Shown here piece after piece: positions 13,974 to 61,534 of a stretch of DNA of 64,000 bases. Origin of the DNA: a virus. Its lineage: Duplodnaviria > Caudoviricetes. The notes beneath the pieces are model-generated. The model was not told where the DNA came from. It saw nothing but the letters and a program-made list of their open reading frames with translations, and made no database searches. How positions within the stretch are numbered: the first letter of the stretch is position 1; each line of letters opens with the position of its first letter. The translations under genes and the position numbers were made by a program. Location: positions 23,418 through 87,417 of IMG/VR virus record IMGVR_UViG_3300037312_000268; one strand, given 5' to 3'.

Positions 13974-14177
13974 TTATTCGGGATCACTTGATACGTATCC
14001 CCGTTGAATGCCACGTCTCGCGTACTTGCGCGTGTGTTCCAAGGCGATTTCGTCGTCCTCCGCTGCATCGAAGCCTTGCTGCCATTCTGCATATTGCTCT
14101 GTACCTTCATCGTATGGGTTGTTCGTTTTGCCGAAAGCATAGTGCTGATAGCCCTCATAATAAATCTTACTGCGCAT
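13974..14177 (-). CDS. RMF/CrpP-fold-like small protein, copy 1
   Basis: EGYQHY..G...NPY.......W..GF pattern; TAATG-coupled to the polymerase stop. Confidence 0.55.
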   Translation of the reverse strand: MRSKIYYEGYQHYAFGKTNNPYDEGTEQYAEWQQGFDAAEDDEIALEHTRKYARRGIQRGYVSSDPE

Positions 14178-18728: not shown

Positions 18729-20420
18729 TTAGAAACTGTGACCTGTGTTGCTGATCGCAGCATAGTCTGCAAGACGTTCAACACTGCTCTCCAAGAACCC
18801 CTCTGGTGGCTCAAGATAATTGCCCGTCTCTTGGTCGTAGTACACTTTGAAATAGCCACTACGCCCATACTTGCGATCTTCAAGCAGAACAATTGTAGAA
18901 GTGTTACGCTCTTTAGGGCTAATGTCAGGGTCTTTGTTACGTTCAATGCCCCACATGTAGTAGGTGCTTCGCATCATAGCACGAGAGCCTGTAAACTGGT
19001 GGCTCAACACTTTTCCACCTCGCTCGTGTGCAGGGCCGCTTTCTGGAGCCTTCAAGTGACAAAAGCAGTAGTAGATGAATCCGAGGTCTTTGGCCATCTT
19101 ACTAAGCTCGTCAGCGAAACGCTCAAGCTCTGTGTTTGCTTCCGCTGCTGTCAAACCTTGCACCATCCTAGAAATCGGGTCAAGAACGATATCAGTCACA
19201 CCTTCCACAAGAACAGCATGGCGGATAGCGCCCTTAACAACGCTCCACGAACATGCACCATAGTTGTTGTAGTAGATGACAGAATCGCCAACCTCATTCA
19301 CGGCTTTGGTGAGGGTTTCTTGATCGAAATAGCCTCGCGAAGTGTCGTAGATGTCATTGCCGTAGATGTCCCGTAGCACACCATCATCACCAACGAAGAT
19401 AACTTTCTCAGGATTCGTAAAATCCTTGCCGTACATCTTACCTGCAATCTTCTTACAAGTGATTTCTGGCTCCTCTTCAAACTTAAAGAGAGCGATCTTG
19501 CTTTTCTCTACCTTGATAACATACTCGGAAAGCTGGTTGACGAACTCACTCTTACCAATCTTAACACCTGCGCCGATGTAGTGCCCTTCGCCAAGACGAC
19601 GACCAAGACTAAGTTTAGTCATTGAAGGCCACGGCCACGGCTTACCAAGTTGAGGCAGTTCTGATGCTTTAGATGCGAAGCTTTCAAACTTAACAAAACC
19701 ATCTGGCGTATAATTCTTAGGCTTCATAACGCACCAGTACAACTGATCAGCCATTCCGTCGCGGATCATGTCAACAGGATCGTAGTCATCAGGTAAGTCT
19801 GCAACAAGAATATCCGGCATAAGGCTGTACACTGCCGCCGTAGCATCCTTACCCTTCATGATCTTTTGCTTTTCGCGCTCCTCTTGTGTGGCCTTATCTG
19901 CGTCAAATGCTGTAATACGCTCAGAAAATTTGGACAGCCAAGATTGGTTCTGCTTCTGTCCAAGATTCTGAACAGCGTTAGCGGTCCCTGCTGCAATGCT
20001 AACAACATTAGGATTTGCTTGAGGATACTTCTCCTTCATCACAGTCCAAGTTGCAGCAGCGTCATACTCACCTTCAGTGATGACAACCTTCTTGCCACCA
20101 GTTTTGTTAGCACAATGCATGCCGAACAAGTCGCACTTAGGGGATTGGAATCCCACAACAGAAAAGTGCCCTGTTACCATCTTAGGGACAGTTAGATCGC
20201 GCTTTTTGTACCCAACCAACTCACCATCGTAATGATATGGAAAGTAGTGTGCGATAGGTGTCTTACCATCTTTCGGACTAAGGGCTGTTTTGATGCCGAA
20301 GTGCTCGGCTGCTGCCTTAGAAATGAATCGCTCAGGAATAGCGAGAACAGGATAATTCGCCACGTCCACCATCGCCTCTTGTGGTTCGTATCGACTGCCT
20401 GTACTCTTAGTTGCTGCCAT
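18729..20420 (-). CDS. Primase-helicase (TOPRIM + DnaB-type), no evident N-terminal Zn ribbon
   Basis: ITEGEYDA, AFDAD, GKS Walker A, LDPIS, CHL, GS helicase motifs. Confidence 0.92.
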   Translation of the reverse strand: MAATKSTGSRYEPQEAMVDVANYPVLAIPERFISKAAAEHFGIKTALSPKDGKTPIAHYFPYHYDGELVGYKKRDLTVPKMVTGHFSVVGFQSPKCDLFGMHCANKTGGKKVVITEGEYDAAATWTVMKEKYPQANPNVVSIAAGTANAVQNLGQKQNQSWLSKFSERITAFDADKATQEEREKQKIMKGKDATAAVYSLMPDILVADLPDDYDPVDMIRDGMADQLYWCVMKPKNYTPDGFVKFESFASKASELPQLGKPWPWPSMTKLSLGRRLGEGHYIGAGVKIGKSEFVNQLSEYVIKVEKSKIALFKFEEEPEITCKKIAGKMYGKDFTNPEKVIFVGDDGVLRDIYGNDIYDTSRGYFDQETLTKAVNEVGDSVIYYNNYGACSWSVVKGAIRHAVLVEGVTDIVLDPISRMVQGLTAAEANTELERFADELSKMAKDLGFIYYCFCHLKAPESGPAHERGGKVLSHQFTGSRAMMRSTYYMWGIERNKDPDISPKERNTSTIVLLEDRKYGRSGYFKVYYDQETGNYLEPPEGFLESSVERLADYAAISNTGHSF

Positions 20421-20842
20421 ATTCTTCTCTCCTTTCCAATAGCCCATCAATCCTCCTCAATCTCAACATCCGCACCTGTACTAAGAAGCAAATCATACAT
20501 CTCTTGTGCGTCATCTCTCTGATCACTAGAAATGGAGTCAAAATAAAACGCCTGAACGGAATCATCTTTAATCAGGCACACAGTGATAACGCCATCTTCG
20601 ATATGAATCTTATATTTGTTCATACATCCTCCTTGTATTTATCACCACAAGAAACGTGACTTTCACGATTGCATCCCACAACATCCATGTCCTGATACCG
20701 AAACACAGTCATGTTAAGCTTCTTATCCAACTCAGTGATTTCTTTGTAACCTAAGAATAGGTATTTCGGCACTCTGCCAGTCTCAACTATATACCCAACT
20801 CGCTGAGATTCGATACGATCTAGGATACCCATTGCAATTTCC

Positions 20843-35958: not shown

Positions 35959-38900
35959 ATGATTGTCAAAGAATTGAGCTACGCATACCCTTCTAGTACG
36001 ATGGCTAAAAAGCTTGGCTTTGCTCGTACAGGTTGCTACTTCGTGACCACTGGTGAAGAGGATGCAGATTACGATATGCGTAAAGTTGTGCAAGGATTTG
36101 ACAAGAAAGAAGATGCGCAAAAATGCATGGACGATATCAATTTTCCTATTGGTTTCTACAGCATAAAATAAAGCTTGACAGCTTCCAGATAAACAAGCAT
36201 ACTAAGCACATCAACAAACATTTAGGAGCAAACCAAATGAACGCACAAGAGAAAGATAACGCATATACGCAAGCTGTTGCACAAGCTAACAGCATCACTG
36301 CAATGGTAGCAGCGCTGGAAGTTGATTATGATCGTCTGGAAGAATTGAAAGATGAGCTTGAAAGTGCTTGCGAAGATCAGGCAGAGGGAAACAGTTTTGA
36401 CGTTTGGGTGGTGAATCAGGCTAACGACGATCAGGCAATGTTCCATGATGCAGCTATTGAATATCATGATTTAGTGGAAGCAGCAAATGGCAACGAATGT
36501 GAAGACGGAGCACGCGAAGCTATCCAGAATGATGCTCTTGACGTGCAAGTGCGCTCCGACTGGCATGCACCGGGTGGTGACAACAAGCCTAGCGAATTTC
36601 AGATTCTGCTGTGCACTGGCGGCCCTGCCGTGCGAATCATTGGCGAACTGGACAATTATAGCGAACCGTGCCGCGCTTGGATCGAATATCAAGATTGGTT
36701 TCAACCGTGGCAAGAGGCTGTCGGTGTTATTGAGCAAGATGTTTTGCTGACGTATTGCCGACAATTCTGGTTTGGGGAGTGATTATGAGTCTTTCTTACC
36801 GACCAGACTTTAAAGCTATCGCTGAGTGCATGGAGGAAGAAATTGCACAAGCCACAGAACGGGCCGCACATAAATATTTAGAAATATTCAGGCAAATGTT
36901 AGGGAAGTACAATTTCAGCCGTCATAAAATAACTCTCTTCTGTGCAATGGGTGTAAGTAATGTGATGGTAGATGACAAATTCTTGCATGAGCGCCCTAAT
37001 TGGAAAGAGAATGCACCGTATAAGCTATTACAAGAAATTGAGGAGTGCATGGACTGGGATTGGGCATATCATCTTGACGGTAAAAGTTTGAATTAAGGAA
37101 TAACATCATGGCTGAAATCATTGGAAACTATCGCGTTTATTCGTCAAACTCCTCACGCAATCAGCGCCCTAGCGTAACTGTCCGTCGTGACGATGGGGCA
37201 ATCGTGGCAAGGATTTATTCTGAAAAGAGTCAACCTTTGCGCTTCCTTCGCAATTGGATTAACTGCACTGAACGCTTGGAGCTAGTGGACCAGCTACGCG
37301 GCAATGGCGTTCCACCGGGCATTATCAAGGAAATCATCTCTGTGAAGGATTGACGATATGCTAACCATCAAATGGCGTTACGAGTCGGACAACTGGCACG
37401 AATACATAACAGAAGATAGTGCCATTGCTGGACAAATTTTCCGCTTGAAGGTGTTGGAACCGAAAATTATGGAAGTGAATCTTTGCAGAGACGATGTTCT
37501 AATCATCCGGTATGTGAAAGAAGATGAGGAAGATTAAAAATGCGACCAATAAAAACTAAATACTACCAAGGGAAACGTTATCACGATCCCGTACAAGTTA
37601 ATAGCGCAAGTGATGCGAATTGGGCTGTTGCTAAATGTGTTGCCCATATGCAAGTGAATCATTATGGAGCAACGAGCGCTGAAGTGTACGACGACAATAC
37701 AGGCGAATTGCACGCTATCGTTACACGAAGCATTAACGGGCGAATTCAGATTGAATACAGGCGTGATCCTGTTAAGTTTGAGACGAGATTAGCTATTGGC
37801 GCATTGTTTGGAAAGGGGAAATGAAATGCCTATGTCATATTGGGAAGGTTATAAGGCGTTCCAAAATGGTAAACCCTATGAAAGTTGCCCTTATCCGTTT
37901 GTTGACGAAGAAGAAAGCGATCATAAATGGTGGGTTAGCGGATGGTATGATGCGAGGAGTGACAGCAAATGAACAAACAACAAGCCCACGAATTGAAGCT
38001 CAAGATGGCCCTGTTCGCTGAAGCGACCGCAATGCTTGCTTTGCTAAAAGATAAAGAGCAATCTAAATGGGATTTAGCTCTGTCAGCACGAGACAGAGCA
38101 CGAGAGGAACTATATACGTTTATTGATGAATTGACGGAGGAATAAATGAGCTACACAAAAGAAGAATGGAAAGTTGAAGGCACAACGGTTTATGCCGAGT
38201 GCCCTAGTAACGCCAATCAGTGCCGTTTTTGGGCAGAGTGTTATTCATCAACGGATGCTACAAAAGAGGAATTGGTTGCAAATGCGCGTTTAATGGCAGC
38301 ATCGCCGTTATTGTTGGAAGCTTTGCAAGCAGTAACACAAACTCTTTCATGGCAATACTTCGGAGAGTGTAGAGGTTTTGACGAAGGGTTGCTTGCACCA
38401 AAGGATGCAGTAGATAAAGCACTAGCAGCAATCAAGAAAGCTTTGGGAGAATGAAATGAACAAGCCACATAAACACAAAAGTTTGATTGTTGCATGGTCT
38501 GACGGTGCTATCATCCAATACTGGAACACATATGCCACTGTCCCACATTGGGTGGACGTTGTAGACAATAAGCCTGAATGGGATGAAGGCACAGAATACC
38601 GCATCAAGCCAGAAAAGGAATATCCGAAAAGCACTCTTGATTATGACGATTTGTGCAAGCTTGTGAATCGTGCTGCACAAGAACACCGAAAAGAGGGGAC
38701 ACATCAAGGTATTCAAACTTTCATAGCTAGGATTGTTGCTGATGCTGCGGTTAAGCGTTACATTCAGGAGAACGAAAAATGACTTGGATTCTTTTTGTTT
38801 GGATTATCGGCTACCACGACAACCAATCACAAATCACACAAGAATTTGTCAGCAAAGAGCGTTGCGTATCTGCTGCTGATGAATGGCGTAAAAGGGTAGA

Positions 38901-41900
38901 TAACACTAGATCATATAGTGATTTTCAAGTCAGGGTGTTGTGTGTTCCTAAATGAGGAGAATCAGTAATGAGCCGAGACATATACACAAGAGTGTGCAAT
39001 GGTGAGCTAATCAACGATGTCGACCTTGCACAAGCAATCAAGGACTACAAAGCCGCAGAGGCAGCATTGTTTAAGCTTGGTCCTTCGTTTGAGATTGCAC
39101 GGAAAGCTGTGACGATGACATTGATTACCCTTGAAGGGTTTGAACAAGCTAGGCGTAAGATGTAAATAGTGCTTGACTTGCTTGTATAAGGCACTGTACA
39201 CTAGCTCTACAGTCTCGCCAGAGACACACAATGAACGAAGGAAGGAAACTATGAACATCACTTGCACAAACAGAGAGTTGACATACGCCCAAATCCGGCA
39301 TATCGTGTTGGAAGAGGCAGCGCAAGCTATCCTTGACGATACTGTTGTTGTACAAGGTGAGGAATGTTACAGAATGAATGCACAGTATTTCGCAAACAAA
39401 CTTCGTCAAATGCGCCATGAGGGGACAAAATGAAAACGCTTAAAGCTATCGTTGCACATATGTTTGAAAGCCCGTGGACCTACAGCGACCATTGTAATGT
39501 CCGCACAAACAAAGTTACAGGTAAAGTGGAATACTGGCACGTCGATCCGTGGGGAGGCTGGTATGATGATGAGCCACAGTTTGCGGGGTGAGAAATGAAC
39601 AACACTAACAGAATCTACAGCACAGAAAACAATTATCTCTGTTGTCTTGTCAAAAGCGCATGGGGATATGACATTGTATTCCCTCCGGAAGAGACGCTTA
39701 AAAGCAAACATGTTAAACGTCTGGACGATGCTTATTGGTGGCTTGATTATTACTTTGGCTTGGGTGAATGGGTGCTGAAATGAACAAACAAGAGTTATCT
39801 ATTCTTGAACGTGCTTTCATTCTTGAAATTGAGTCAGCGCTCAACAAAGGGCCGTACCTGTTGCAGACAAAGAGTAAGGTAGCGGCTGCATTGGCTCAGG
39901 AAGGCTATCTAGAGGCCACGCAGGAGGTTTTCAAGGGCGTTGTGTTGAAAGGGTACAGGTTGACACATCTTGGGCGTATGACGTATTGTGAGACGTGCGA
40001 GGGGGAGTGATGGCCCGTAGCTCTTGGAATTCATGGCTGCTAACGTTTGAGCTAGGCGAAAGACGCTACGTTGACACAACGTTAGAACGCTACGCATCGG
40101 ACATGAGGACAATCAACACCCCAAAGAGTAGACGGCCTGATATCATGATTGGCCTAGAGTTTGAGACAACGTTGTTTACTGCCGTCTCTGCGAGCAAAGC
40201 GGGTGATGTAAGGTATTTAATTGCGGTGGAAAGGGTGGCTTAACATGGGATACCTAGTACAAGGATTCAACATAGATACACAACAGTGGGAAAGCTTGCC
40301 ATATCAGACGGAAGACTTTCAAACACATTATGTGTGGCCTGTTGAACATATGGCAATTGAAGGAATGAAAACGTAAGCTCAACTTTGGCCGGGGGAATAC
40401 CGTGTGATTCCGGCAAACAAATCTTGACATGCACCAGCACACAGCTTTTGTTCATGTGACGCATCACGAGAATAAATCTTAGAATGTGCTTGACATGCTT
40501 GTTTGTCTTTGCTATAGTTCTTACATCAGCAGCGCAAACACACTAAGGAGCTAAAAAAATGTTACTCTCTAAAATCGAAGTCACCGTTGATCGCTTCACC
40601 AAAATGTTCAACAATGGCTTGCTTGACCTGAACGGTGGTAAAGCTGTCTCGTGGTGGATTGGTCAAGATGGTAACTTTTGGGTGGAACACTACTTTCCTA
40701 GCACGTATCAGCGCCTTGCAAACCCTTCCTACAAGGTGAAACAATGAACTTTAACTGGAATCAAATGCCGTTCAAGCATTACCCCGGTGTTCGGTCGCTG
40801 GGGTTTTCCTTGCAACAGCTAGACAATGCATACGCACAAGGAAGCATCACAGAACGTGAATACCGCTGGCCGTGTTGTTCCGAAAGGGGCAGCACGGCTT
40901 TTGTTTGTGTGGGGCAATGTTAGGGGATAATGCTGTATTAGCTGCGCAGCTAATATAAAATAGTGCTTGCAATGCTTTCTTAAGTGCGCTATGATTCTTC
41001 TGTCGCTTCACTAAGAAGACATGGCAGCACAACACAACAGGAGAAGATTATGTTCAAAGTCAAGACAAACTATTCTGCGACCGGAGAACGTGGCGGATAT
41101 GTTCTGCAATGGCAAGGCCCAAACAAACCAACACACATTGTTGGAAATAACAACACTTGCTGCTGGTACAAGTATAAGCACGAGGCAGAGAAAGCTTGCG
41201 GAGAGCAGAACAGAGCATTAATTGAAAAGCTTAGCATGTCTGAATTAGAGGAACATTTCATTAGCTCGCTGTCTGACAATCAATGGAAATTTCTGCTTGG
41301 AGTTGAAGCTTGACAACCCTTGAGGATTTGCTAAACAATTTCAGACATGCGGCGCTAGACGCTAATGCTTGCGGGAATGACTTTGGTACAGGACAAGCAT
41401 TAGCTGATGCGGAAGATGCTATATTAAAATTATTTAAAACTGAGGTGGGTGTCATGAATATTAAAGTTGAAGCTATACAACAACACGTTGATATCGCCAT
41501 TGACAACAACGGGGAAGGTGCCACATGGAAAAGTTTTAGTTTGTTCCTGAACGAAGATCAAGCTAAAGACCTTATGCAGCAGTTAAGCGAAGCAGTCGTT
41601 AAAGTGGCAGAATACAAGGGTAGAGGTACGGGCGATACTATCTATGGTGAGGTACACGAGTAATGACTATTCATGTAGACAGGTGCCAAGACATGATAGA
41701 GGTAATCGCAAGAGATGCACTGAGAGGTGAAATCAGCTTGCTACTTACTGTCGATGATCTGACGAGCTTGATTGATGATTTGCAGAATGCTCGTTATGCT
41801 GCTTTGAAGTGGCTTTCTGATAGAGATAAGCGGAACAATCATAATGTGCAAGGGTGGGAGGTGTGATGCAAATATTTATAACTCGGCTAGACCTGATGAT

Positions 41901-42507
41901 ACAATATTGCAGGTTCAAGCCTAACACGAAAGTAAAGATAGCTTGCAATAGTGGGGAACAACTAAGCCAGATGGCAGATGTCATGCACACAAAGCTTGAG
42001 CAAGGCGATAAATTCTCCTGGGCAGAGGGTTATATAAGGTTTGCTAATGGAAGCAAGATTGAATGCGCTATCGGTGGCAACGGGTTATCGTGCGAGTCAA
42101 TGTGGTTCGATGAGGCCGTATCATGAAATACTCTAAACTTAAAGTGGGGCAGGCTTTCCAGTTTGAGCCTAACGGTGCTGTGTTCGTTCGTTGCCGTGGT
42201 GGGTATCGCTTGGGCACTGGAGGACGGCTGTTTATTGCTAGAGGAACTGAGGAAGTGTTTCTGTGGGGGCTGTGACATGTACAGCAAAAAGAACCTACAG
42301 AAGCGCAGGGACATCGTTGCTCAGCTAAGGCAAGAGTTTCCCGATGATATGCTGCGCAAGATGACGTATGAGGAACGCTATAACGTCAGGATGGTGAGGG
42401 CTGAGCAGCTATGCAAAGAGGCCAGGAAGCAGGGATATAGGCTGTCTAGGAGTCAAGGTAGTCATGACTTCAATGCGGCGCTTACTGTGGTGTTTGAAAG
42501 TGACTGA
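35959..42507 (+). CDS. Run of about 20 small early/host-takeover hypothetical genes
   Basis: Dense plus-strand ORFs with RBS and overlapping ends, e.g. 38146-38454 (ANARLMAASP family), 38456-38782. Confidence 0.65.
36237..36782 (+). CDS. Conserved phage hypothetical protein
   Basis: ILLCTGGPAVRIIGEL...YQDWFQPW. Confidence 0.75.
   Translation: MNAQEKDNAYTQAVAQANSITAMVAALEVDYDRLEELKDELESACEDQAEGNSFDVWVVNQANDDQAMFHDAAIEYHDLVEAANGNECEDGAREAIQNDALDVQVRSDWHAPGGDNKPSEFQILLCTGGPAVRIIGELDNYSEPCRAWIEYQDWFQPWQEAVGVIEQDVLLTYCRQFWFGE
37826..37972 (+). CDS. RMF/CrpP-fold-like protein, copy 2 (missed by ORF track)
   Basis: MPMSYWEGYKAFQNGKPYESCPY...WWVSGWYDARSDSK*; ATGA-coupled to the next gene 37969-38145. 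Confidence 0.7.
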   Translation: MPMSYWEGYKAFQNGKPYESCPYPFVDEEESDHKWWVSGWYDARSDSK

Positions 42508-42745
42508 GGATGGACAGCTAAGGGGGTGTAAGGACTATAACAAAATTCTTATAATTGGTATTACTACAACCTACTGTTCAGACTGCACGACAGGTGCTAC
42601 AATGTGTTCATTAAGTAGTGCGGGGAGTGAGTCAAAACGGCTGAAAGCCAGTATCCATGCGGGTTCTGGCTGTTTTTCGTTGGATTCTTGTGCTATTATA
42701 CGGAGAGATTCTAGTATGCTGTGAGAGACTGTAGGGAGATGAGCA

Positions 42746-44008
42746 TTGAAGATAGAGATTACACAAGATGGCGTAGTGAGAGAGAGTAGGACATACTCAA
42801 TCAACAACAGAACACTATCATTGAATATTGAGATTCTAGATCGTATCAAGAACAAGACTAGAAGCTGGAAGACAAACAAGAAGCTTGTAATCAATGTTGT
42901 GTTAATGAACATGATTGCATGCTCAAGTAAGAACATACGCTTATTCTATTCTAGGGATAAGAATGCTAGAACTAAGAGCATTTACAACACTAGAGGAATC
43001 AATGGGTATGATGTAATCAAAGCAATTGATATGCTAGAGGAAAAAGGATATCTAGTCAATCACATTGCACCAAGACAGTATGGAACATCGGGAGATAAAA
43101 TGTCTAGTTGGATCGAGCCTACAGATTTCTTTAAGTCTGAGTTTATGACGCAGGAAGAACTATTAATGCGTGCTGACATGGCATATTGTGCAGCATGGCT
43201 ACCAATCATCATGCGCAATGAGAAGAAAGAGCCTGTTGATTACAGAGCAGACGAAAACACGTTCGCTATTGAAGCTGTAATCAATCGCTTGAATGAAACA
43301 AACGCCAAGTTCAAGTTTACGGACGAGCATGGGGAAGAGTTTCAAAACTGGTATAGTCGTATCTTCAACAATAGCAACTTTCAAGAGGGGGGAAGATTTT
43401 ACAAAGCTAGTGTGTTGAATATTCCTAACAAAGAAAAGAATCGGCTACGAATCAAGATTGACAATGAACCTGTCGTAGAAGTGGACTACACAGCATTACA
43501 CATCTTCATGCTAGCTGAGAAGTTAAAATGTGCTGACCAGTTGGGCGATGATCCATACATGCTGGTTGAGAATATAGATAGAACAGCCGTAAAGCTAGCA
43601 GTAAACATCATGTTCAATTGCACAAGCCGACTACAAGCTGTTCAGAGTATCAATAGCAAGATGCAAGAGATTGGTTACAAGGCGCATTCAGGTAGTCAGA
43701 TTGTTACAGCCATCTTCAAAGCTTTCCCACAATTGAAGGATGAGTTTTGTAATAAGAATTGCACTGGTCTTAAGCTACAGAATCAAGATAGTTGGATGAC
43801 TCACTACGTTGCTAACGTAATGTCAACGTTAGGAAAGCCATTCTTGCCAGTGCATGACAGTGGTGTTGTGCGCGCGCAGGACGAAGCATTACTTATTCAG
43901 TTGATGTGTGAAGCTTACAATCATACACTTAAAACTGATAGCATCGTGCACATGAAACTATCAAAGATTGTTGATGGGCAAGTGGTGAAAATCGATGTCT
44001 CTTGCTAG
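42746..44008 (+). CDS. Minimal PolA/T7-RNAP-superfamily polymerase (TV-Pol-like) with N-terminal wHTH-like region
   Basis: GGRFY, EVDYTALH (A), RTAVKLAVNIMFN (B), PVHDS (C); TTG start with GGAG RBS. Confidence 0.72.
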   Translation: MKIEITQDGVVRESRTYSINNRTLSLNIEILDRIKNKTRSWKTNKKLVINVVLMNMIACSSKNIRLFYSRDKNARTKSIYNTRGINGYDVIKAIDMLEEKGYLVNHIAPRQYGTSGDKMSSWIEPTDFFKSEFMTQEELLMRADMAYCAAWLPIIMRNEKKEPVDYRADENTFAIEAVINRLNETNAKFKFTDEHGEEFQNWYSRIFNNSNFQEGGRFYKASVLNIPNKEKNRLRIKIDNEPVVEVDYTALHIFMLAEKLKCADQLGDDPYMLVENIDRTAVKLAVNIMFNCTSRLQAVQSINSKMQEIGYKAHSGSQIVTAIFKAFPQLKDEFCNKNCTGLKLQNQDSWMTHYVANVMSTLGKPFLPVHDSGVVRAQDEALLIQLMCEAYNHTLKTDSIVHMKLSKIVDGQVVKIDVSC

Positions 44009-44411
44009 GGGGCGCTATGGGCAACGAACAGATAGAAACACTAGAGGACGCCTACGACATTGTACAGAGTCTGCTAAGGGCTGGAATAGTGGTTGACAGT
44101 GATCTTTATGAGTGTATGCGGGTGCTATCTGCTGTGTTAGAGATAAACACACAACAATCACAAGAATCATAAGAAGTTCTTGACTTAGCCTGCCAAGTGT
44201 TTTACACTGGTTTCACGGTACAACAAACAGCCGATAGGCAAACAGAGAGGACATCATGAAAGCTACTATCCTAACTATCGATGACAAGCTTGTAACAGGA
44301 ATGTGCTTCAAAGCTGTAGTAGGTGAAGAAGCTACAGTGTTGGTAAATAACAATGATGTCATCAAATCTTACACAGGAACTGTAGTTGAAATTAACTAAG
44401 GAGAATCTAAG

Positions 44412-47280
44412 ATGTACGGCTACGACATGAACACTGGCAAGGGTAGGCTGCAAGCAATGGCACATGCCGCAGCAGAGGATTACGGATATACATATAATGG
44501 CCGTATTGATGAATTTCATGTTTTCGAGAAAGATACGTCACATGGGACTGTTGTGCTTAAGTGTACAGATTGGGATATCAGGGATTCTCTACTGCCAATA
44601 ATGTTACAGCAACAATTTACAAGATAACATTGGTGGAGATAATTATGACGGCGCACGCAATTGCAGAAATTAAACGTGCATTCAGTAACATGCACAAATC
44701 CCTTTTCTTCGACCTCATTCTTGTTGTCGCTATTGTTGTGTCTGCCCCTTGGTCTGCTATTCTTGGTTGAAAGGAAAGGTGATGAACACAATCGATGTAA
44801 CTCATCAAAATGCAGCTAGCCTTCTTGTCCTAGAAGCAATGTGTGAAAAAGTTGGTGATGGAGACATACTAGAAGTTTTTAAAGTTGGCACTGATGCAAA
44901 AGTAGAAGTAAAGATGTTTGTCAATGATGTTGAAGTCGATGTCGTGCAAGCACTGAATGAAGCATGGGAAAGATTGGAAGCTGTGTACGAAAAGAACCTT
45001 TTAGAGAAAGCTAAAGAGCTTGTCAGTATGACTAAGTTTGAAGACCTGAGCCATAAGCTAGAACGTGCTGCATGGGATATCGAGCAGGCGTTAGAGGCAG
45101 CTTTGAAGCAGAAATAAACACTAATAGGAGACTCCCATGTGCAACGCCTACATTGTCGGCTACAACGCCCATCGTTTCGGATATGCCAAGCTTACACAAT
45201 GTCCGTATTTGAAAGGCAGCTATAATGCTGTACAATGGGCAGAAGGCTGGAAAGCTTGTAAAGGAGGAGGATATGACGAACACTAATCAAAATAACAACG
45301 AATTGGCAGACTTACACAACAAAGTTGTAGAACTTCTTAATCACTTGGAAGATGTGCTCGACGATGAGAACTTCGACAAGATAGATTGTAGCTTGTGGAA
45401 TGCTGTTTCTATGTATATGGTGATTCGAAAAAATAATATGTACGCAATTCAATGGTATGACGATCATAACAACACGTGGTTACTGTGCAGCACGAAAGGA
45501 CAGCTTGAAATTTATCACGAGTTTCACAGAGCACATGAAAGCTGTGAAAAATGGTGTCAGAGCAGCAAAAACAATGGTTGCACAGATCAATATAGAATTG
45601 TTACTGTGATTGTAAAGGAGGAAACACAACATGGCTAAGAAAGACAGCGTCGAAATGCTTGAGGCAAAGATTGAAGTGTTGACGAGGGCTAGGAAGAATA
45701 TTGAAACAGGAAAGTACCGTGGTATTTGTGCTGCAATCTATTTCTCTTGGGATTGGTGCTGTTCGAAAGAATTTATTACTGCTTCGAATACTCTCCGTAA
45801 TTACATTAGTAATATACTTGGGTGTAATAGACTTGTGTATTATAGATACCTTGATAATTGGTTAGAGGAGAAGAGGCCTAAGCTAAACCGTAGTGACAAG
45901 AGTATGAAGCAATATAGGCTGCAATGGATTGATTGGATGCTGTCATGTCTGCAAGAGGACTTAGGAGAAAAGAAAGCTAAGAAAAAGTAAGAATCTTGTT
46001 GACGTGCTTAGAGTGCTTGTGTAGTATGAAGTATGTTGCACATCCTTCCTTACTAACCAGATCGGTATAATCATGAAACAGGCTAAAATCAAAAATCTTA
46101 ACAGGGTTAGAATTAATGGTGAGTTGTATGAGTGGAATGATTTTACACAGAGCTATTGGTCTGTTCTTGGCAAAGCCAGAGAGTTGCAAAAAGAGGATGT
46201 TGCAGACGTAGATTTAGAATCATTGGAACTTGGCAAGTTTGAGGATAAAGAATAACATGCTCAACCCCTACAAACTCATTGCAACATGCATAACAGCCCT
46301 AGCAATCATGGCTGTCTCTGTGCAAGCCACACAAGCCGAAGAGAAAGCCAATCCACTCAGTGGCCTGCACATAAAAACAACATATTGCCTCAACATTCTA
46401 GGTTATGACAGAGGATGTTACACAGAGAATGCTATGGGGAAACATGGTGTTCGTAAAGCTATTGTCAAACGAGTGCTAGAGCATATATGCTTCCATGAGG
46501 ATGATGTAGAATGTTTGTTGTTGAGGAGCCATAAAGGATTGCTCATTGTGATGTCTGATGAGGCATTGAATACGAAGACAGATGTTACTGTGTGGCAAAA
46601 GAAAGCTAATACAATGCCGATGATTGAGATTGGGGAGGAGAAATGAATAAGTGCGAAATTATTGCGAGGGCGAATGGTTTTGAAGTTGATTTGTACGGCT
46701 TTCTTGGTATAAGGTATTATTGGTTTAAAGGTATTGAAGAAAGCGTTTGATGTTGTGTTAGAAGGTGGTTATTTATATACGACAGAGCCTTATTGTGTTT
46801 GGTTGGAAGACGGAGGATTTATCTGCTCAAGATGGCCTCATAGCTTTAAGCCTACACATTTCTGTTTGTTGTCGGAAGAGAGAGGGAATGATATGAAAGT
46901 AGTAAAGAAATCGGACGTGTTGGTAGTCCTAGATGACAATAAGACAGAGCATCAATTTACATTAAATCCTTCAGGACAACACAGCATTCACAAGATAACG
47001 TATTCAGATGGATGTAGTAGCGAACATATCATGACGCCAACTGTAAAAATGCTAGTAAGGTTGTTGTTAGATGGAAAGGATGAATAACATGTTGACACAA
47101 GAGCAAGCTAAACAAATTCTCGTGCTGGCTTCTAGCTATGCGTCTATTGCTGGGATGAATGAGGCTGTAGCAGCATATGGGTGTGTGGACAATAAATCAG
47201 CAGAACGGGAGAAACAAGCTTGGGAAAAGCTTGATGGGTATGTGAGAGGGTTGGTAGAAAAAGCTGATGTTAGTGCTTAA
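44412..47280 (+). CDS. Further small early hypothetical genes, including secreted protein 46257-46646
   Basis: ORF track; AQA-type signal peptide in 46257. Confidence 0.6.
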
Positions 47281-47366
47281 ACAGCTTGACATGCTGTGTG
47301 GCGGGTGTAGAATGATGTTCATGGCAGGACAACAGCCGTAAGGCAAACCCACTAGGAGCAATCAAC

Positions 47367-47633
47367 ATGAGCATCAATGAAATCGACTGGGATGCAATCT
47401 ACAACGAAGGCTACCGTGCACAACGTGATGGCCTGTACTTTAAAGATTGCCCTTACGAGAAAGGTACTGCCGAAGCTGGTCAATGGCTCATGGGATATCA
47501 GTATGCAGAGGAAGGCTCTGTAGACGAGGATAATAGCGGAGAGTATTCTAATCGGTTCGGGGCGCTTTTTCTTTTGTGTAGAGTGCTTTTGCATGGCTGT
47601 ACATCTGTGCAGTATATTGAACGTGTATTATAG
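47367..47633 (+). CDS. RMF/CrpP-fold-like protein, copy 3
   Basis: EGYRAQRDG...DCPY......QWLMGY; own promoter at 47286. Confidence 0.7.
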   Translation: MSINEIDWDAIYNEGYRAQRDGLYFKDCPYEKGTAEAGQWLMGYQYAEEGSVDEDNSGEYSNRFGALFLLCRVLLHGCTSVQYIERVL

Positions 47634-48342
47634 GTCACGTGTATTGTTTGGCAAAACTTCGATCACAAGTGAAAATCGTACAACCCTTGTCATCAACGAG
47701 GGGTATTCCGTGACGAGCACTATTCATAACCAACGAGTTATGTATTGCCAAAGTGCTATCTACAGCAGTGTGTACGCACAGACAGGCGTGTTATGTACGT
47801 GAGAGGGCATCCCGCAGCAGCAGGACGGCGCACACAGAGGGCATGGCGCAGCGAACAGGGAATAGAGAGGCTAGAAGGGGCGCAGAGAGGGAGTGTGTTG
47901 CGAACTACATTCGATGCGAGATAAGGCCGTGGCGGGGCTGTATTCGCGTCAGAGGGGGATTCGTGAGGGTGTGATCGTGTGCAGATTGCACAGGCGTGCG
48001 ACGTGGGGATGCGGGAGAGGGTAGGCTATTGGGCCGTCAGTTATAAACGACTCTTGAACAACGGCTTTTTAGAAGGCCTGTTTTGCCATATTTCTGGTAG
48101 TAGACCCCGCCCAGCGACCCTTCGGCGGGCACTGTTAGACCACGGAGACAAGGGTGTCTCGATTTAAGATGGAAGGGTTGACCTATTAAGAAACCTGCCG
48201 AAAAATTAAAAATCGGCCAAAAGGGATATTGTTGATATATTTACAACAAGTCGATGATGGTATGTGACTAATAGGCGACTTCAAATTTTAAAATTTTAGA
48301 AAATTCTCTTGCAAAGTCGCCTACATATGAAGTACAATATGT

Positions 48343-49482
48343 CTATTGAAGCTGCTGTCCACGAGCCTTCAAAACACTCTGGAATTGCTCTGATTTACTG
48401 TAGATTTCCCACTCGTCAGGGTGAGTAGCGGATTTACTGTTATTGCAAAACTGACATAACCATTGAAGATTCCAGATGTAGTTAGTACCGCCAAGAGCCA
48501 GAGGGTAGATATGATCGAGATGCTTATTAGAGGTTGTCAAGGCGATGCCGCAACAATTACATTTATGTCCTTGCTCCTCCAACAATCTGTTTGTTTCCTC
48601 AAGAGTATGATTTCCTTCTGCTCCATTGCGCCTAGCACGACGGTTCTGATTGTTAACTCTGGCCCTATCTAGATTTAACTTTTGATATTCACACGCCCGC
48701 TTAATTGCATGTTCTCGATTCTCTTGATACCACTTTGCTGCTCTAGCTTTATCAAACTTTGCTTTAAGAACGAAGTAGTCCTCTCGTTTCTTATCACCCA
48801 CGGATTTCTTTCTGATTAAGTTTTCTGAATAGTTGTATTCGTTTCCAGATTCAAGATACTTGACAACCCATTGACTTGTTCCATCTACTCTGTCAACAAC
48901 CTTAAATTCCATTTCAAGCAAGTCTTTGTGAACTGTTTCGATGAACACCTCACCTTTTGAATCAAGAGTTCTTTGCACAGACTTGATTGCGGCTCTAGCT
49001 GCTTCTCGTTCTGCCTTTGCTGCCTCTTTCGCAAGCCTATTGGATTCCTCAATGGCAGCTTTCTCTGCTCGCCTTGTCTCAGCTATAATACGTTTTTCTT
49101 CTGCACGTAGTTCAGAATTTTTCTGCTCCTGAATGGCTATAGCAAGTTTATCAGTGATATAACCTGCAAGGATTGCACTCTTTTGAACAACAACACGATT
49201 ACCTGTGTTTACAAATTCTACAGTAACCTCTTTGGAGTTTGTGATTTTGATTACCTTAACTTGCCCGTAGTTATTCGTGTTGTATAGACCATTCAACTTC
49301 AGAGCGTACTTCGGACTTTTGTAATCTACGACACCATTGGCTATGATTGTCTTGATTGAAGGGTGCTCTACATTGCCAGTGTCCTCAAAGACGATCCAAG
49401 CATGGTCGCCGTCCATCTTTCCAACCTTATACCGTCCGAAGTTATTGCTTGTAGCCAAGTACCCTACATAAATCTCAGTCAT
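48343..49482 (-). CDS. HNH endonuclease with three N-terminal repeats and a coiled coil
   Basis: CNCC...HLDHIYPLALGGTN...NLQWLCQFCNNSK. Confidence 0.85.
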   Translation of the reverse strand: MTEIYVGYLATSNNFGRYKVGKMDGDHAWIVFEDTGNVEHPSIKTIIANGVVDYKSPKYALKLNGLYNTNNYGQVKVIKITNSKEVTVEFVNTGNRVVVQKSAILAGYITDKLAIAIQEQKNSELRAEEKRIIAETRRAEKAAIEESNRLAKEAAKAEREAARAAIKSVQRTLDSKGEVFIETVHKDLLEMEFKVVDRVDGTSQWVVKYLESGNEYNYSENLIRKKSVGDKKREDYFVLKAKFDKARAAKWYQENREHAIKRACEYQKLNLDRARVNNQNRRARRNGAEGNHTLEETNRLLEEQGHKCNCCGIALTTSNKHLDHIYPLALGGTNYIWNLQWLCQFCNNSKSATHPDEWEIYSKSEQFQSVLKARGQQLQ

Positions 49483-49750: not shown

Positions 49751-50440
49751 TCAACTTAGTTGAAGTCTGTCAATGATATTCTTAACGGTTGTAGGATACC
49801 ATTTCCCACCTCGTTGTGTTGGGGTCTTATACTTATTTAACCTTGCAGCCATTTGACTTAGGGTGAGATTGAGTGCCTTGTAGTCGGTGATAGTCTCTCT
49901 CATGAACTCCGCAAACTCGTCAGCCTCCTTTTTGTTTACCATGACGCTGCGCTCAATTGCCTTAGACCTCGCATCAGCCACCTTCTCAAGATGCATTCCC
50001 ATAGGTTCTCCTCGAACCTTTTTCGCAGCGAATGCGGCTTTTGTCCTGTCACCGATCTTCCTACGCTCCTCCTCCGCGAATGCAGCGCGTAGAGAAATTT
50101 CTAACGGAGAGCACTCCAAGCCTGTTTCAGCCGTAATGAAATTTACGTTGGTGGCTACCAACTTGTTAATGAAAAGCTGCGACCTCGAAAGCCTGTCGAT
50201 TTTTGATGTCAGCACAGAGCATCCTTTAATCTTTGCCGCATCCTCAAAAGCTTGACGCAGTATGGGGCGACGGTCTAAATCATGCTTACCGCTCACAACC
50301 TCCCTACGAATGTCGATGATTTCCAATCCGTTCCTTTGTGCGAACCGTTGCATGTCTTCAATTTGGGCCTCAATACCCAAGGAGCTCTTAAACTGCTCTG
50401 AGGTACTGCATCGTGCGTAGCAAATAACTTTGTGGCTCAT
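49751..50440 (-). CDS. Serine recombinase (resolvase domain + short DNA-binding domain)
   Basis: YARCS (Ser12), DRLSR, C-terminal ARLN...T.RGGKW.PTTV. Confidence 0.9.
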   Translation of the reverse strand: MSHKVICYARCSTSEQFKSSLGIEAQIEDMQRFAQRNGLEIIDIRREVVSGKHDLDRRPILRQAFEDAAKIKGCSVLTSKIDRLSRSQLFINKLVATNVNFITAETGLECSPLEISLRAAFAEEERRKIGDRTKAAFAAKKVRGEPMGMHLEKVADARSKAIERSVMVNKKEADEFAEFMRETITDYKALNLTLSQMAARLNKYKTPTQRGGKWYPTTVKNIIDRLQLS

Positions 50441-58312: not shown

Positions 58313-59976
58313 ATGAATAAAAAACAGAAGACAGTGCTGGGTCCAGACAGCCCTACGCACAAAGCCTTCCTTGATTGTACAAGTGACTACATTATTTTTG
58401 GTGGTAAACTGTCTGCCTCCAAGTAAAAACATCTCTCTAATTCAGGGAAACTCTCAACGAGACAATCCTGAGCGAAGCCTATAAATAGGAACGTGCAACG
58501 ACTAGCTGAAAAGCGTAGGGCTAAGCGGCCCGAAACGGGAGACTCCGAAAGGATGAAGATATAGTCTGAACATTGCAGCGATGCAGTGCAGCCAAATCGG
58601 CGGGACGAGGTTAGCGCCCTCGTCTGAACACAATGGGCGCAGGCTGCGGAAAATCTCACCAAGCACTACTCAAGGTACTTAAGTACAAAGACGATCCAAA
58701 CTTCCGCGCAGTTTTTATCCGCGAAACAAGCACTCAGCTTTCTCAAGCAGGTGGATTGTATCAAGAAGCTGAGAAGATGTGGAAGCAATTTGGTGCTAGA
58801 TTTAAGACGCACCCTCAAATGACCGCTGTGTTCCCATCTGGTGCACAAGTGCAGTTTAAAGTTTGTGGTGCAGACCGTGATATCTCCAACTACGACGGTG
58901 GTCAGTTCTCTCTAGTGGTATTTGACGAGGCTCAGAACCACACAGACGTGCAGATTCGATATCTTGAGTCTCGTATTCGTTCTCAGGCTAAAGGTCCGCA
59001 CCAACTTATCGCAACATGCAACCCTAGGCGTGATAGCCATCTTATGCCTTTCGTGAATTGGTATCTGGATCAAGACACAGGTATTCCTATTCCTGAACGT
59101 TCTGGTGTTGAGCGTTATTACGCTTCGTACAACGGCACGATGGTGTTTGCTGACACTAAAGAAGAACTCATCGAAACCTATCCCGGCGTACGTCCACAGT
59201 CCTACACTTTCATCAGTGCCACTATTCGGGATAACCCGAGGATGAAAGTGCTGAATCCCGGCTACGTGGCCCGTCTGGAGAACCTTAAGCGAGTTGAGCG
59301 CGAACGTCTTCTGCTTGGCTCTTGGTTTGCTAAGGAAGAATCTTCCGGTTATTTCAAACGAGATTGGTGTGAGATTGTTGACAAGGTTCCTGCACAGATT
59401 GTAAATCGTGCACGCGGAATGGACTTAGCCAGTACACTTCGGTCTGAGAGCAATCCCAACCCTGACTGGACTGCATCCACTCGTATCTCCAAGGGAAAAG
59501 ACGGATTCTACTACGTTGAGCATGTAGAGCGATATAGAAAGCTTACCCACGGAGTTCTTGAAGAAATTGCCAAGTGCGCTATCAAAGACCGTGACGAACT
59601 GGGACAACAAGTTCCAGTGTTTATTCCGAAAGACCCCGGCGCTGGTGGTGCAGCAGCTAATATGTTCTTCATTAAAACTCTAGTGGAGAATGGTGTAGAT
59701 GCTCGCACAGAGGTTGTTACAGGGCATTCCGGTAAACTTACTAGAATGCAACCTTTTCTGTCTCTTGCGGAAGCTGGACTTGTCCGGGTAGTTAGGGGCG
59801 AATGGAACGAAATGTGGTTCAACGAGCTAGAAGATTATATTGATGGCAACAGAAACCAGAAGGACGACATGTGGGATAGCACTGCTACGGCTTGTAAGGC
59901 TGTTATGAAACAGATTACTATTCCGTCGTTTACTTTGTCTGTGAATACACAGCCGTCGCCTATTCCCTCTCTATAA
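58313..59976 (+). CDS. terL: Terminase large subunit, spliced: exon 1 58313-58405, exon 2 58636-59976
   Basis: Splicing restores Walker A FGG|GAGCGKS; FDEAQ Walker B; DLAS and KDDMWD nuclease motifs. Confidence 0.93.
58406..58635 (+). mobile_element. Group I intron, 230 nt, no internal ORF
   Basis: P AATTCAGGGAA, Q AATCCTGAGC, R GTGCAACGACTA, S AAGATATAGTC; U-G pair in P1; terminal G. Confidence 0.92.
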
Positions 59977-60052
59977 TACCATAAGGTTGCACAATGTTGA
60001 CAAGAATCAGTTGCAATGGTACAATTCGTGCTAGTAAAGAAAAGGAGCAATA

Positions 60053-61534
60053 ATGGCCGCTAAAAAGAAGCCACAAGACAATACGGCTGCTCTAGCGGCT
60101 GATGAAGGCATGCCTGTCCCTCGGATTTCTTTGGGTGAAACGGGTTTTGTTGGAACTCGCACAGTTTGGGGACGAGTAATCGATGACCCGCAGCGTGCAT
60201 TCCACTGGCCTAATTTTTACCGTACAGTCCGGGAAATGATGAATGACGCAGTTATTGCGTCTGCATTCAATACCTACCGCATGCTCCTGTCCCGCGTAAA
60301 GTGGTCAGTTGAGCCTCCTGAGAATCCTACGGAAGAAGACAAAGCCCGCGCCAAGTTCGTGCAATCCTGCATGGACGACATGGAAGAGAGTTGGGCAACC
60401 TTCCTGTCAGATACTATCACATATCTGCAATATGGATTTGCTGTAGAAGAGAAGGTGTACCGTCGCCGCCTGTATAAGAATGGTAGCAAATTTAATGACG
60501 GTCTTGTCGGACTTCGTAAACTTTCTCCTCGTGGACAAGACACTATTGTACGGTGGACTTTTACGGAAGATGGTCGTGAATTGATAGGTTGTGAACAATC
60601 TATTTACAATCTTGAGCATGGTGCCATGTTTATGGACCAGACTAACGAACACGGTCTTATCCCAATCAAACGTGAAAAATTTATGCTGTTTAGGGCAGAC
60701 CCAACAAAAGGCGACCCTACGGGCAACTCCGTACTGAAAAACGTGTACAAAGCGTGGAAGCAAATGGACATGTTGCGTGACCAAGAATTACTTGGAATTG
60801 CTAAAGAGTCCAACGGGCTTCCGCTTATTAAGTTGCCACCTGAATTTATGGCAGCAGATGCACCTGACGATATGAAGATGGTGTACCAGACATGCCAAAA
60901 GTTGCTAGATACAATTCAAGCAGGTACTAACAAGGGTATTATTTTCCCTCGCAGGTTAGATGAAAAAGGTAACGACCTTTTCGATATCAGCCTCATGGAG
61001 AAAAAGGGCGTCAACGGTGTAAACATTGACAATGTTATTAAGCGATATCACACCGAAGTCTACTCTGCTCTTGGTATTGATATTCTTAAAGAAGTTGACC
61101 AAATTGGTTCGTTCTCTCTCGCTGACTCTAATACGAATCTTGTGTCGCTTGCAATGAGCCATCGTCTGAATGAGATTGCCGACGTGCTGAATAGTGATTT
61201 GGTGGTGCAATTATTCCAGTTGAATGGTTGGTCATTGGAAAGACTCCCTAAGTTTGTTTACGGCGACATCTCTGAAATGAGTGCAGATGAACTCGGAAAA
61301 TTGGCACAAAGAACAGGCAGTATCGGTCTAGTTCCTAAGAGTGTTGATGTTGTTAATCGTATTCTGCGTGCTATGGGTGTTACGGAACTTCCTGAAGATA
61401 CCAACATTGATGATGTTGAATTCACGATGGAGTCCAGTAATGCGGGCGAAGGCATGACTACACCGTACTCTGGAACCGCCAAGAAACCTACTAAGAAGGA
61501 TTCCAGTGCTAGTAATAATGAGAATGCGGCATAA
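60053..61534 (+). CDS. Portal protein
   Basis: 493 aa directly after terL; YLQYGFAVEEKVY, GSFSLAD patterns. Confidence 0.88.
   Translation: MAAKKKPQDNTAALAADEGMPVPRISLGETGFVGTRTVWGRVIDDPQRAFHWPNFYRTVREMMNDAVIASAFNTYRMLLSRVKWSVEPPENPTEEDKARAKFVQSCMDDMEESWATFLSDTITYLQYGFAVEEKVYRRRLYKNGSKFNDGLVGLRKLSPRGQDTIVRWTFTEDGRELIGCEQSIYNLEHGAMFMDQTNEHGLIPIKREKFMLFRADPTKGDPTGNSVLKNVYKAWKQMDMLRDQELLGIAKESNGLPLIKLPPEFMAADAPDDMKMVYQTCQKLLDTIQAGTNKGIIFPRRLDEKGNDLFDISLMEKKGVNGVNIDNVIKRYHTEVYSALGIDILKEVDQIGSFSLADSNTNLVSLAMSHRLNEIADVLNSDLVVQLFQLNGWSLERLPKFVYGDISEMSADELGKLAQRTGSIGLVPKSVDVVNRILRAMGVTELPEDTNIDDVEFTMESSNAGEGMTTPYSGTAKKPTKKDSSASNNENAA

Follow-up and report, generated by a model that had tools for sequence, protein, structure and literature searches.

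A gene in the early-gene block of a tailed-phage genome encodes a protein whose predicted fold and conserved catalytic residues support reading it as a much reduced relative of T7 RNA polymerase and DNA polymerase I, joined to a winged helix. Its core and the genomic context of its bacterial homologues support assigning it, as a putative phage member, to the TV-Pols, a kind known computationally since its description in 2008 by Iyer, Abhiman and Aravind (PMC2579912). Our preferred reading, to which we give about an even chance, is that the protein is an active, exonuclease-less minimal polymerase that acts as a site-directed primase or prim-pol and so as a replication initiator; here we infer catalysis, de novo priming and, within the priming proposal, the nucleotide sugar and the site of action. 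The window is the whole 64,000-nucleotide stretch that was analysed, taken from a viral record of 87,417 bp that was judged complete and holds one copy of the gene. The coordinates of the features are collected in Table 1.

Table 1. Features of the polymerase-like gene, its leader and the phage primase-helicase, in window coordinates.
Feature	Position	Strand	Detail
CDS, TV-Pol type: winged-helix domain and minimal family-A/T7-RNAP-like polymerase domain	42746-44008	+	420 aa
Shine-Dalgarno AGGGAGA	42733-42739	+	6 nt before TTG start
N-terminal winged-helix domain (predicted)	42794-43150	+	residues ~17-135; YSR motif, S69/R70 invariant in near clade
Thumb, two long antiparallel helices	43154-43303	+	residues 137-150 and 170-186; DSSP of model
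Beta-hairpin with invariant G216-R217 (GGRFY)	43355-43402	+	model DSSP and conservation
Motif A strand, invariant E245 and D247	43466-43501	+	H252 at the Pol I steric-gate Glu position; conservation
Fingers: D269-x-Y271, O-helix R279-x3-K283	43550-43828	+	N287/N291 replacing Phe/Tyr; conserved helix G341/Q345-N346/S349; DSSP and conservation
Motif C hairpin PVHDS, invariant H370 and D371	43844-43873	+	conservation
Non-coding leader	42508-42745	+	238 nt
Extended -10-like box TGCTACAAT	42595-42603	+	conserved in relatives (TATAAT in L128); missed by consensus scan
Conserved 25-nt motif CTGAAAGCCAGTATCCATGCGGGTT	42641-42665	+	hairpin of the first-pass annotation; 80-100 nt upstream of gene in five relatives
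Second conserved block CTATTATACGGAGAGATT (consensus CTATATAGGGAGAGATT)	42693-42710	+	single copy in window
gp4-like primase-helicase	18729-20450	-	no Cys in first 100 residues

The open reading frame of 420 codons named in the first-pass annotation is present, and opens with a TTG directly after an in-frame TGA. Homologues of 419-424 aa align from residue 1-2, and the gene calls of related contigs are full length. Because of the Shine-Dalgarno sequence before the TTG and the alignment of the homologues from their first residues, a public call of 367 aa, which starts at an internal ATG, is too short. The gene sits in a long run of small plus-strand genes, and its neighbours are conserved among the closest relatives only; for a 51-aa ORF downstream (44017-44172), a sequence comparison of phage loci found no conservation. 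GC content is slightly lower, at 40-42%, across 42.5 to 47.5 kb of the window.

Sequence searches place the protein in a large family. Scans of the protein and its relatives against Pfam, NCBIfam and PADLOC gave no matches: Pfam, including its DNA_pol_A model, matched neither the protein nor any of 61 homologues, and the PADLOC models of anti-phage defence matched none of the four family members tested. Among PHROGs the match is to phrog_4756, of 'unknown function' (E 2e-48). The family counts 3442 clusters (50% identity) at E up to 1e-3 and 1070 at 1e-10. Homologues from cultured phages of Vibrio, Aeromonas, Pseudoalteromonas and Rheinheimera, and from ICP1, are annotated as hypothetical except for one Rheinheimera protein that is called 'DNA polymerase' in the viral structure library. 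Some phages hold two or three copies, the position in the genome varies, and throughout one clade of 85-93 kb phages the gene is intact with invariant catalytic residues. Neither single-sequence nor family-profile searches of PDB sequences found a polymerase. Alignments by hhalign to single T7 RNA polymerase, T7 DNA polymerase and the window's own PolA were not significant; the best local ones cover IHDSFG of T7 RNA polymerase and motif A of T7 DNA polymerase. A megablast of the gene region against phage records gave no match.

A full-length structure model built from 25 homologues (pLDDT 87.8, pTM 0.84) has a right-hand palm-fingers-thumb fold with an RRM-like palm. In a Foldseek search of the PDB the top matches were family-A polymerases only, namely apicoplast Pol, several bacterial Pol I enzymes, Pol theta, KlenTaq and T7 DNA polymerase (probability 1.0, E from 3e-6); over the Foldseek and VIA comparisons together, all top PDB matches were family-A DNA polymerases or single-subunit RNA polymerases. 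In the viral structure library the family itself came first, followed by the same two groups. Among the structural neighbours in the Atlas, one bears the automatic name 'family A palm domain.' The polymerase palm that had been proposed from the letters alone withstood this comparison of the predicted model. Matches to polymerases begin at about residue 145-150 in the VIA alignments and near 145 in Foldseek. The protein leaves no space for an exonuclease domain, in agreement with the earlier claim that none is present, and its N-terminus, described as wHTH-like, is predicted to form a winged-helix domain. At equal Z, the structure-aligned identity is 17-18% to yeast mitochondrial RNA polymerase as against 12-14% to DNA polymerases.

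The four motifs on which the polymerase claim had been based were all located, and among 61 diverse homologues of 22-46% identity they are conserved beyond chance. GGRFY spans residues 215-219 (nt 43388-43402), DYTALH residues 247-252 (nt 43484-43501), R279/K283/N287/N291 fall at nt 43580-43618, and VHDS occupies residues 369-372 (nt 43850-43861). Invariant in this set are G216, R217, R233, E245, D247, Y271, K283, H370 and D371, and at least 90% conserved are R70, Y219, H252, D269, R279, N291, S349 and S372. On the secondary structure of the model the invariant and conserved residues fall on the Arg hairpin, motif A, the fingers Asp, the RxxxK O-helix and motif C. Both putative catalytic Asp residues, D247 and D371, are thus invariant, and the polymerase reading survives this comparison as well. 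From the fold match and established motif knowledge, the GGRFY hairpin is probably the equivalent of TGR in Pol I and RGRVY in T7 RNA polymerase. The spelling of the motifs, GR-x-Y, D-x-Y and HDSF, leans toward T7-type RNA polymerases; the Pol I spelling is TGRLSS, DIH and HDE. The basis of this comparison is established motif knowledge together with the local hhalign alignments, which were not significant.

The nucleotide pocket is unusual. By a register taken from motif spacing rather than from residue-level superposition, the steric-gate Glu of Pol I is replaced by H252 and the O-helix Phe and Tyr by N287 and N291. The Tyr position corresponds to Y766 in Klenow and Y639 in T7 RNA polymerase, and the Phe position to F762 in Klenow and Met635 in T7 RNA polymerase; ribonucleotide exclusion by Pol I depends on E710 and F762. 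To our knowledge, Asn at both the Tyr and the Phe position is unprecedented among assayed enzymes, so the activity may differ from simple templated synthesis. This His/Asn/Asn set makes sugar selection directly testable. The only assayed TV-Pol relative is CcPol-MP of SCCmec, one of the PolA-SSB primases, which is a primase (PMC7581432, PMC10061031). CcPol uses dNTPs, keeps the dNTP-selecting Glu and Phe of Pol I as E174 and F225, and has terminal transferase activity (PMC7581432). Like CcPol-MP, an enzyme used as a primase, the phage protein has a family-A catalytic domain that lacks an exonuclease and is carried by a mobile element, but it differs in having H252 and N287 at the dNTP-selecting positions. 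Moreover, CcPol-MP depends on a small OB-fold partner and is encoded in a helicase operon, whereas sequence comparison across the phage loci found neither a conserved partner nor a helicase neighbour for the phage gene.

The minimal TV-Pol core was defined by a thumb coiled-coil, an Arg beta-hairpin, two Asp residues, a fingers Asp with RxxxK, and the absence of a nuclease (PMC2579912). The DSSP elements of the model together with G216-R217, D247, D269, R279-K283 and D371 provide this core, and the suggestion in the first-pass annotation of a minimal TV-Pol-type group agrees both with the published definition and with the genomic context of the bacterial homologues. These homologues, of about 540 aa, share the N-terminal and the polymerase domains, with an insertion between them. 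A bacterial scan with one genome per species returned 121 loci, from Desulfobacterota, Rhizobiales, Sphingomonadales, Rhodobacterales, Bacteroidota and others; their taxa and contexts match those of the 2008 paper (PMC2579912). In the 79 of these loci that were analysed, genes that recur nearby encode gamma-delta resolvases (24 loci) and tyrosine integrases of two clusters (18 and 17), as well as large serine recombinases and DNA methylases. A resolvase or integrase lies within 8 kb in 45 of the 79, at per-cluster median distances of 0.15, 1.1 and 1.4 kb, and the L042 homologue has a type I R-M system on one side and an integrase on the other. Across the bacterial loci neither a helicase nor any other replication gene is conserved. 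Since the recombinase is the only other gene conserved there, the protein is the sole candidate for a replication function of these elements, and such a function was proposed for them in 2008 (PMC2579912).

Like one published subset of TV-Pols, the phage protein combines the minimal core, without a nuclease, with an extra N-terminal globular domain, and its bacterial homologues adjoin resolvases, integrases and R-M islands. Unlike that subset, it is phage-borne, in the early-gene block of 85-93 kb lytic-type phages, and its N-terminal domain is predicted to be a winged helix rather than all-helical. It differs from the other subset in lacking a fused or adjacent D5-like helicase; the window, 36 phage loci and the 79 bacterial loci showed no such neighbour or fusion. 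With a threshold of E up to 1, the family profile found no match in Microcystis phage Ma-LMM01, which carries one of the members named in 2008. Its winged helix, its uncommon nucleotide pocket and its possible link to a mapped phage origin make this phage subfamily worth studying by experiment.

The full PolA that had been reported for this phage is present at 14177-16291 on the minus strand, and the primase-helicase does lack Cys in its first 100 residues, as expected from its description as a Zn-less primase. The phage also encodes ribonucleotide reductase, terminase and portal. Thirteen related phages carry the gene some 4 kb away from a divergent Toprim-DnaB primase-helicase, and in 10 of these 13 that enzyme keeps a CxxC...CxxC Zn ribbon. 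The suggestion that the protein complements a Zn-less primase is weakened by these 10 phages, and we reject compensation as a general explanation. Because this phage and the 13 related phages already have a primase-helicase, a second primase is not obviously needed. No long word recurs more often in the genome than TTGACAAGAAT, a -35-type motif on the plus strand before late genes, which bears out the earlier claim of host-type promoters. A search of the genome for a repeated phage-specific promoter found none, and that the repeated promoters are only of host type speaks against a general role in transcription. Cumulative GC skew reaches its minimum some 10 kb upstream of the gene, at the strand switch near 31-33 kb of the window; as evidence against an origin at the gene this is weak, because skew there follows the direction of transcription. 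GC skew placed no origin at the gene, and no iteron array flanks the gene in the window.

The setting is like that of T7 RNA polymerase, which makes primers at the primary origin of a phage that has a Pol I-type polymerase and a gp4-type primase-helicase. The T7 enzyme has 883 aa, whereas the phage protein has 420, with a polymerase domain from about residue 137, and is without the promoter-binding N-domain, the specificity loop and Tyr639; unlike T7, the phage genome yielded no phage-specific promoter set. The same proposed logic, in which one protein recognises a site and makes the first primer, applies to the origin-specific plasmid primases ColE2 Rep and RSF1010 RepB' with ssiA/ssiB. The catalytic folds of these two (AEP-type) are unrelated to that of the phage protein, and the likeness would be functional only.

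The leader upstream of the gene was said to be non-coding, and it contains no credible ORF. The terminator-like hairpin also described there stands only in part: the arms AGCCAG (42647-52) and CTGGCT (42667-72) and a T-run are present, but the leader is not more structured than its shuffles (z -0.9) and a terminator scan found no plus-strand terminator in it. In 28 instances the hairpin element is conserved as sequence, without covariation, and the hairpin model CTGRRA/TTYCAG is 75% paired, the same as in shuffles. Rfam gave no match within 38000-48000 at E up to 1. In an alignment with five relatives, whose proteins are 60-78% identical, the leader DNA has diverged apart from three conserved parts, namely the -10-like box, the 25-nt motif and the second block.

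A pattern of the 25-nt motif with 20 specified bases occurs in 22 IMG/VR contigs, for a chance expectation that a rough estimate puts well under one; a first, looser pattern scan of viral contigs gave mostly chance matches. Most of the 22 contigs have no relative of the gene and unrelated flanks, and many flanks carry iteron-like repeats. Some hold two copies, which in L253 are on opposite strands, and the orientation of the motif relative to neighbouring genes is not fixed. In at least 8 of the 22 the large neighbours are primase-helicases of the DUF5906/VapE type (D5-like) or the AEP Prim-Pol/PriCT type. The motif also lies in the oriV region, with iterons, an AT-rich stretch and a DnaA box, of Rep_3/MOBQ4 plasmids of about 4 kb, and motif-bearing plasmids of this kind are found in 442 of 5426 complete E. 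coli genomes. In these genomes 496 of its 503 places are on small plasmids, and an origin as a fragment of a host chromosomal gene was rejected. Further occurrences are in an iteron-rich gap of coliphage SKA49, in two Amphritea elements, where TV-Pol-like genes with resolvases lie 2.4-3.4 kb away, and in short intergenic gaps within early operons of temperate Pseudomonas phages, which are not obviously origins. The motif is absent upstream of more distant phage homologues and in ICP1, and a literature search on the motif string and on ssi signals gave no identification. We read it, from its distribution, as a mobile-element-borne and mostly origin-associated DNA motif, which would add weight to a replication role of the locus, short of proof.

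Both alleles of ICP1 ORF100 are homologues of the phage protein (hhalign probabilities 99.6 and 99.8). The two share one locus and are only 28% identical over 240 residues. The ICP1_2011_A allele has drifted, with NGKMY for GGRFY and VYDE for VHDS, and retains both Asp residues. Replication was profiled in strain ICP1_2006_E, in which the gene lies at 58951-60618, and the theta origin of ICP1 was mapped by an early bidirectional replication coverage peak 'near the 60 kb position' (PMC7145576). ORF100 thus appears to coincide in position with the mapped theta origin, as far as a coverage peak in 1-kb bins can place it. There are no clear iterons at ORF100, and the literature on the ICP1 origin yielded no paper naming an initiator.

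In the mechanism that we propose, the winged helix would bring the enzyme to a particular site in the DNA, which plausibly lies at or close to the gene itself; a short primer would then be made de novo by the polymerase domain and extended by the T7-like replisome, made up of PolA and the gp4-like primase-helicase. In this phage, which lacks its own RNA polymerase, the protein would play a part comparable to that of T7 RNA polymerase in priming the T7 origin. We counted for priming the fold and active site, the bacterial elements, the CcPol-MP precedent, the ICP1 position, the occurrence of the leader motif near primase-helicases, iterons and oriV, and the nearness of the gene to a primase-helicase; counted against it were the primase-helicase that the phage already has, the lack of flanking iterons, the GC-skew minimum elsewhere, the motif in Pseudomonas phage gaps that are not obviously origins, its absence from ICP1 and from upstream of the more distant homologues, the coarse 1-kb binning of the ICP1 peak, and the Asn residues at the Tyr and Phe positions.

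Several of the same observations can be read differently. The leaning of the motif spelling toward T7-type enzymes, the higher structure-aligned identity to yeast mitochondrial RNA polymerase, and the replacement by H252 and N287 of the ribonucleotide-excluding E710 and F762 of Pol I, both of which CcPol keeps, would suit a very small single-subunit RNA polymerase whose winged helix recognises a promoter and which transcribes only one or a few particular templates, for instance its own operon or a non-coding RNA, instead of priming replication; a conserved leader block also resembles the T7 promoter start TATAGGGAGA. However, that block is single-copy in the window, the sole repeated promoter-like motif in the genome is of host type, and the N-terminal domain, specificity loop and Tyr639 equivalent of T7-type RNA polymerases are lacking. 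Bacterial homologues, moreover, reside in minimal integrative elements, in which the missing function is replication, and we consider an RNA polymerase unlikely. We think it similarly unlikely that the gene provides the replication of a selfish TV-Pol element that resides in the phage genome and that it would serve the spread of this element instead of phage replication, possibly together with a serine recombinase 5.7 kb downstream. Neighbours that are not conserved beyond the closest relatives, a variable genome position with two or three copies in some phages, the divergent ICP1 alleles at one locus and the slightly lower GC content would all fit such an element, as would resolvase genes that lie 5-6 kb downstream in the window, L127 and L129 and also stand beside bacterial homologues. 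Yet the gene is intact, with invariant catalytic residues, across the clade of 85-93 kb phages, neither element boundaries nor repeats turned up around it, and the window's resolvase belongs to another gene block, on the opposite strand.

An accessory DNA polymerase or terminal transferase, engaged in gap filling, lesion bypass or template-independent tailing, is in our judgment improbable. A family-A fold without a proofreading domain, the terminal transferase activity of CcPol and O-helix Asn residues that could relax template reading are compatible with it, but every member carries a fused winged helix that looks sequence-specific, the mobile-element context suggests initiation rather than repair, and no linked repair genes were found in the phage and bacterial loci. 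Least credible, and very improbable, is a catalytically dead polymerase fold that acts only as a DNA-binding regulator or initiator. It would account for the drift of the ICP1_2011_A allele at several motifs and would have a parallel in some 'Pol' partners of Pol-SSB pairs that are thought to be vestigial; against it, every catalytic residue is invariant in the protein and the 61 diverse homologues, and even the drifted allele still has both Asp residues.

The priming reading can be carried further, to a form that we put forward tentatively and ourselves regard as doubtful: the family may constitute a third kind of tailed-phage replication primase, a 420-aa, winged-helix-guided, T7-RNAP-like enzyme that starts de novo at the origin, possibly with ribonucleotides, with ORF100 as the initiator of the ICP1 theta origin. 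If this is true, the protein would be a phage origin-recognition protein and at the same time the smallest known single-subunit template-dependent RNA or primer polymerase. TV-Pols represent the smallest working core known for the Pol I/T7 RNA polymerase enzyme class, and the family, with thousands of clusters, has no Pfam model and is of 'unknown function' in PHROGs, yet is found in phages as well studied as ICP1. An origin-specific primer maker would explain how replication starts in phages that have a T7-like replisome and no RNA polymerase, and would offer a very small, programmable polymerase for study. In ICP1, the theta origin would gain a named initiator, a target in the arms race between ICP1 and PLE.

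The leader directly upstream of the polymerase-like gene carries a 25-nt motif with the core AGCCAGTATCCATGCGGGTT, which is shared by unrelated phages, plasmids and integrative elements and often takes the form of an imperfect inverted repeat, GAAAsCC-N11-GGGTTTC. Primase-helicase or Rep genes, together with iterons, are the usual neighbors of the motif, and two copies are present in some cases. No Rfam family was matched by the motif and no covariation was detected, nor was a name for it found in the literature searched. In Escherichia phage SKA49, a T7-like RNA polymerase gene adjoins the motif and an iteron-rich 1.3-kb noncoding region. Another conserved block of the leader, with the consensus CTATATAGGGAGAGATT, was observed as one copy only within the window, and TATAGGGAGA is common to this block and the initiation region of the T7 promoter.

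Coordinates of the features discussed (L-numbers denote the other DNA records compared)
Feature	Location	Strand	Remark
25-nt motif	window 42641-42665		
25-nt motif, further instances	L188; L247-L267; L268:1331-1368; L269:4001-4039; L097:5579-5607; L123:4558-4586		
T7-like RNA polymerase gene, SKA49	L269:4819-6933		
Second leader block	window 42693-42710		
51-codon ORF	window 44017-44172	+	own Shine-Dalgarno; begins 9 nt past polymerase gene stop codon
ORF100, ICP1_2011_A	L001:7704-9005		434 aa
ORF100, ICP1_2006_E	L126:6952-8616		555 aa
Serine recombinase/resolvase	window 49751-50440	-	5.7 kb downstream of polymerase-like gene
HNH endonuclease gene	window 48343-49482	-	directly after serine recombinase/resolvase
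gp4-like primase-helicase	window 18729-20450	-	
TTGACAAGAAT(C)	window 51266, 55779, 56231, 57521, 59997	+	

The recorded gene call of 367 aa starts from an internal ATG (window 42905) rather than at 42746, and lacks 53 conserved N-terminal residues. The 51-codon ORF that follows the gene is not conserved among relatives, which makes a fixed partnership unlikely. ICP1 isolates have the polymerase-like gene at a single locus (ORF100) in two strongly diverged alleles that share 28% identity across 240 aa, and the small genes flanking ORF100 also differ between them. Drifted motifs (NGKMY, VYDE) are seen in the ICP1_2011_A allele. The position of this locus matches that of the early replication peak published for ICP1, near 60 kb. 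Two or three paralogs of the gene, located far apart within one genome, were observed in some phages, namely an 88.8-kb viral contig (L008 and L018) and Vibrio phage 249E41-1.

The gp4-like primase-helicase is without a Zn ribbon, since its first 100 residues contain no Cys; CxxC...CxxC is present at that site in most related phages. Resolvase genes were found again in two relatives (L127 and L129), at a similar distance from the polymerase-like gene as in the window, and resolvases are the commonest neighbors of the bacterial homologs.

No other 11-12-mer recurs as often in the genome as TTGACAAGAAT(C), which without exception lies on the + strand ahead of the late/structural genes. It probably forms the -35 portion of a set of late promoters of the host type.
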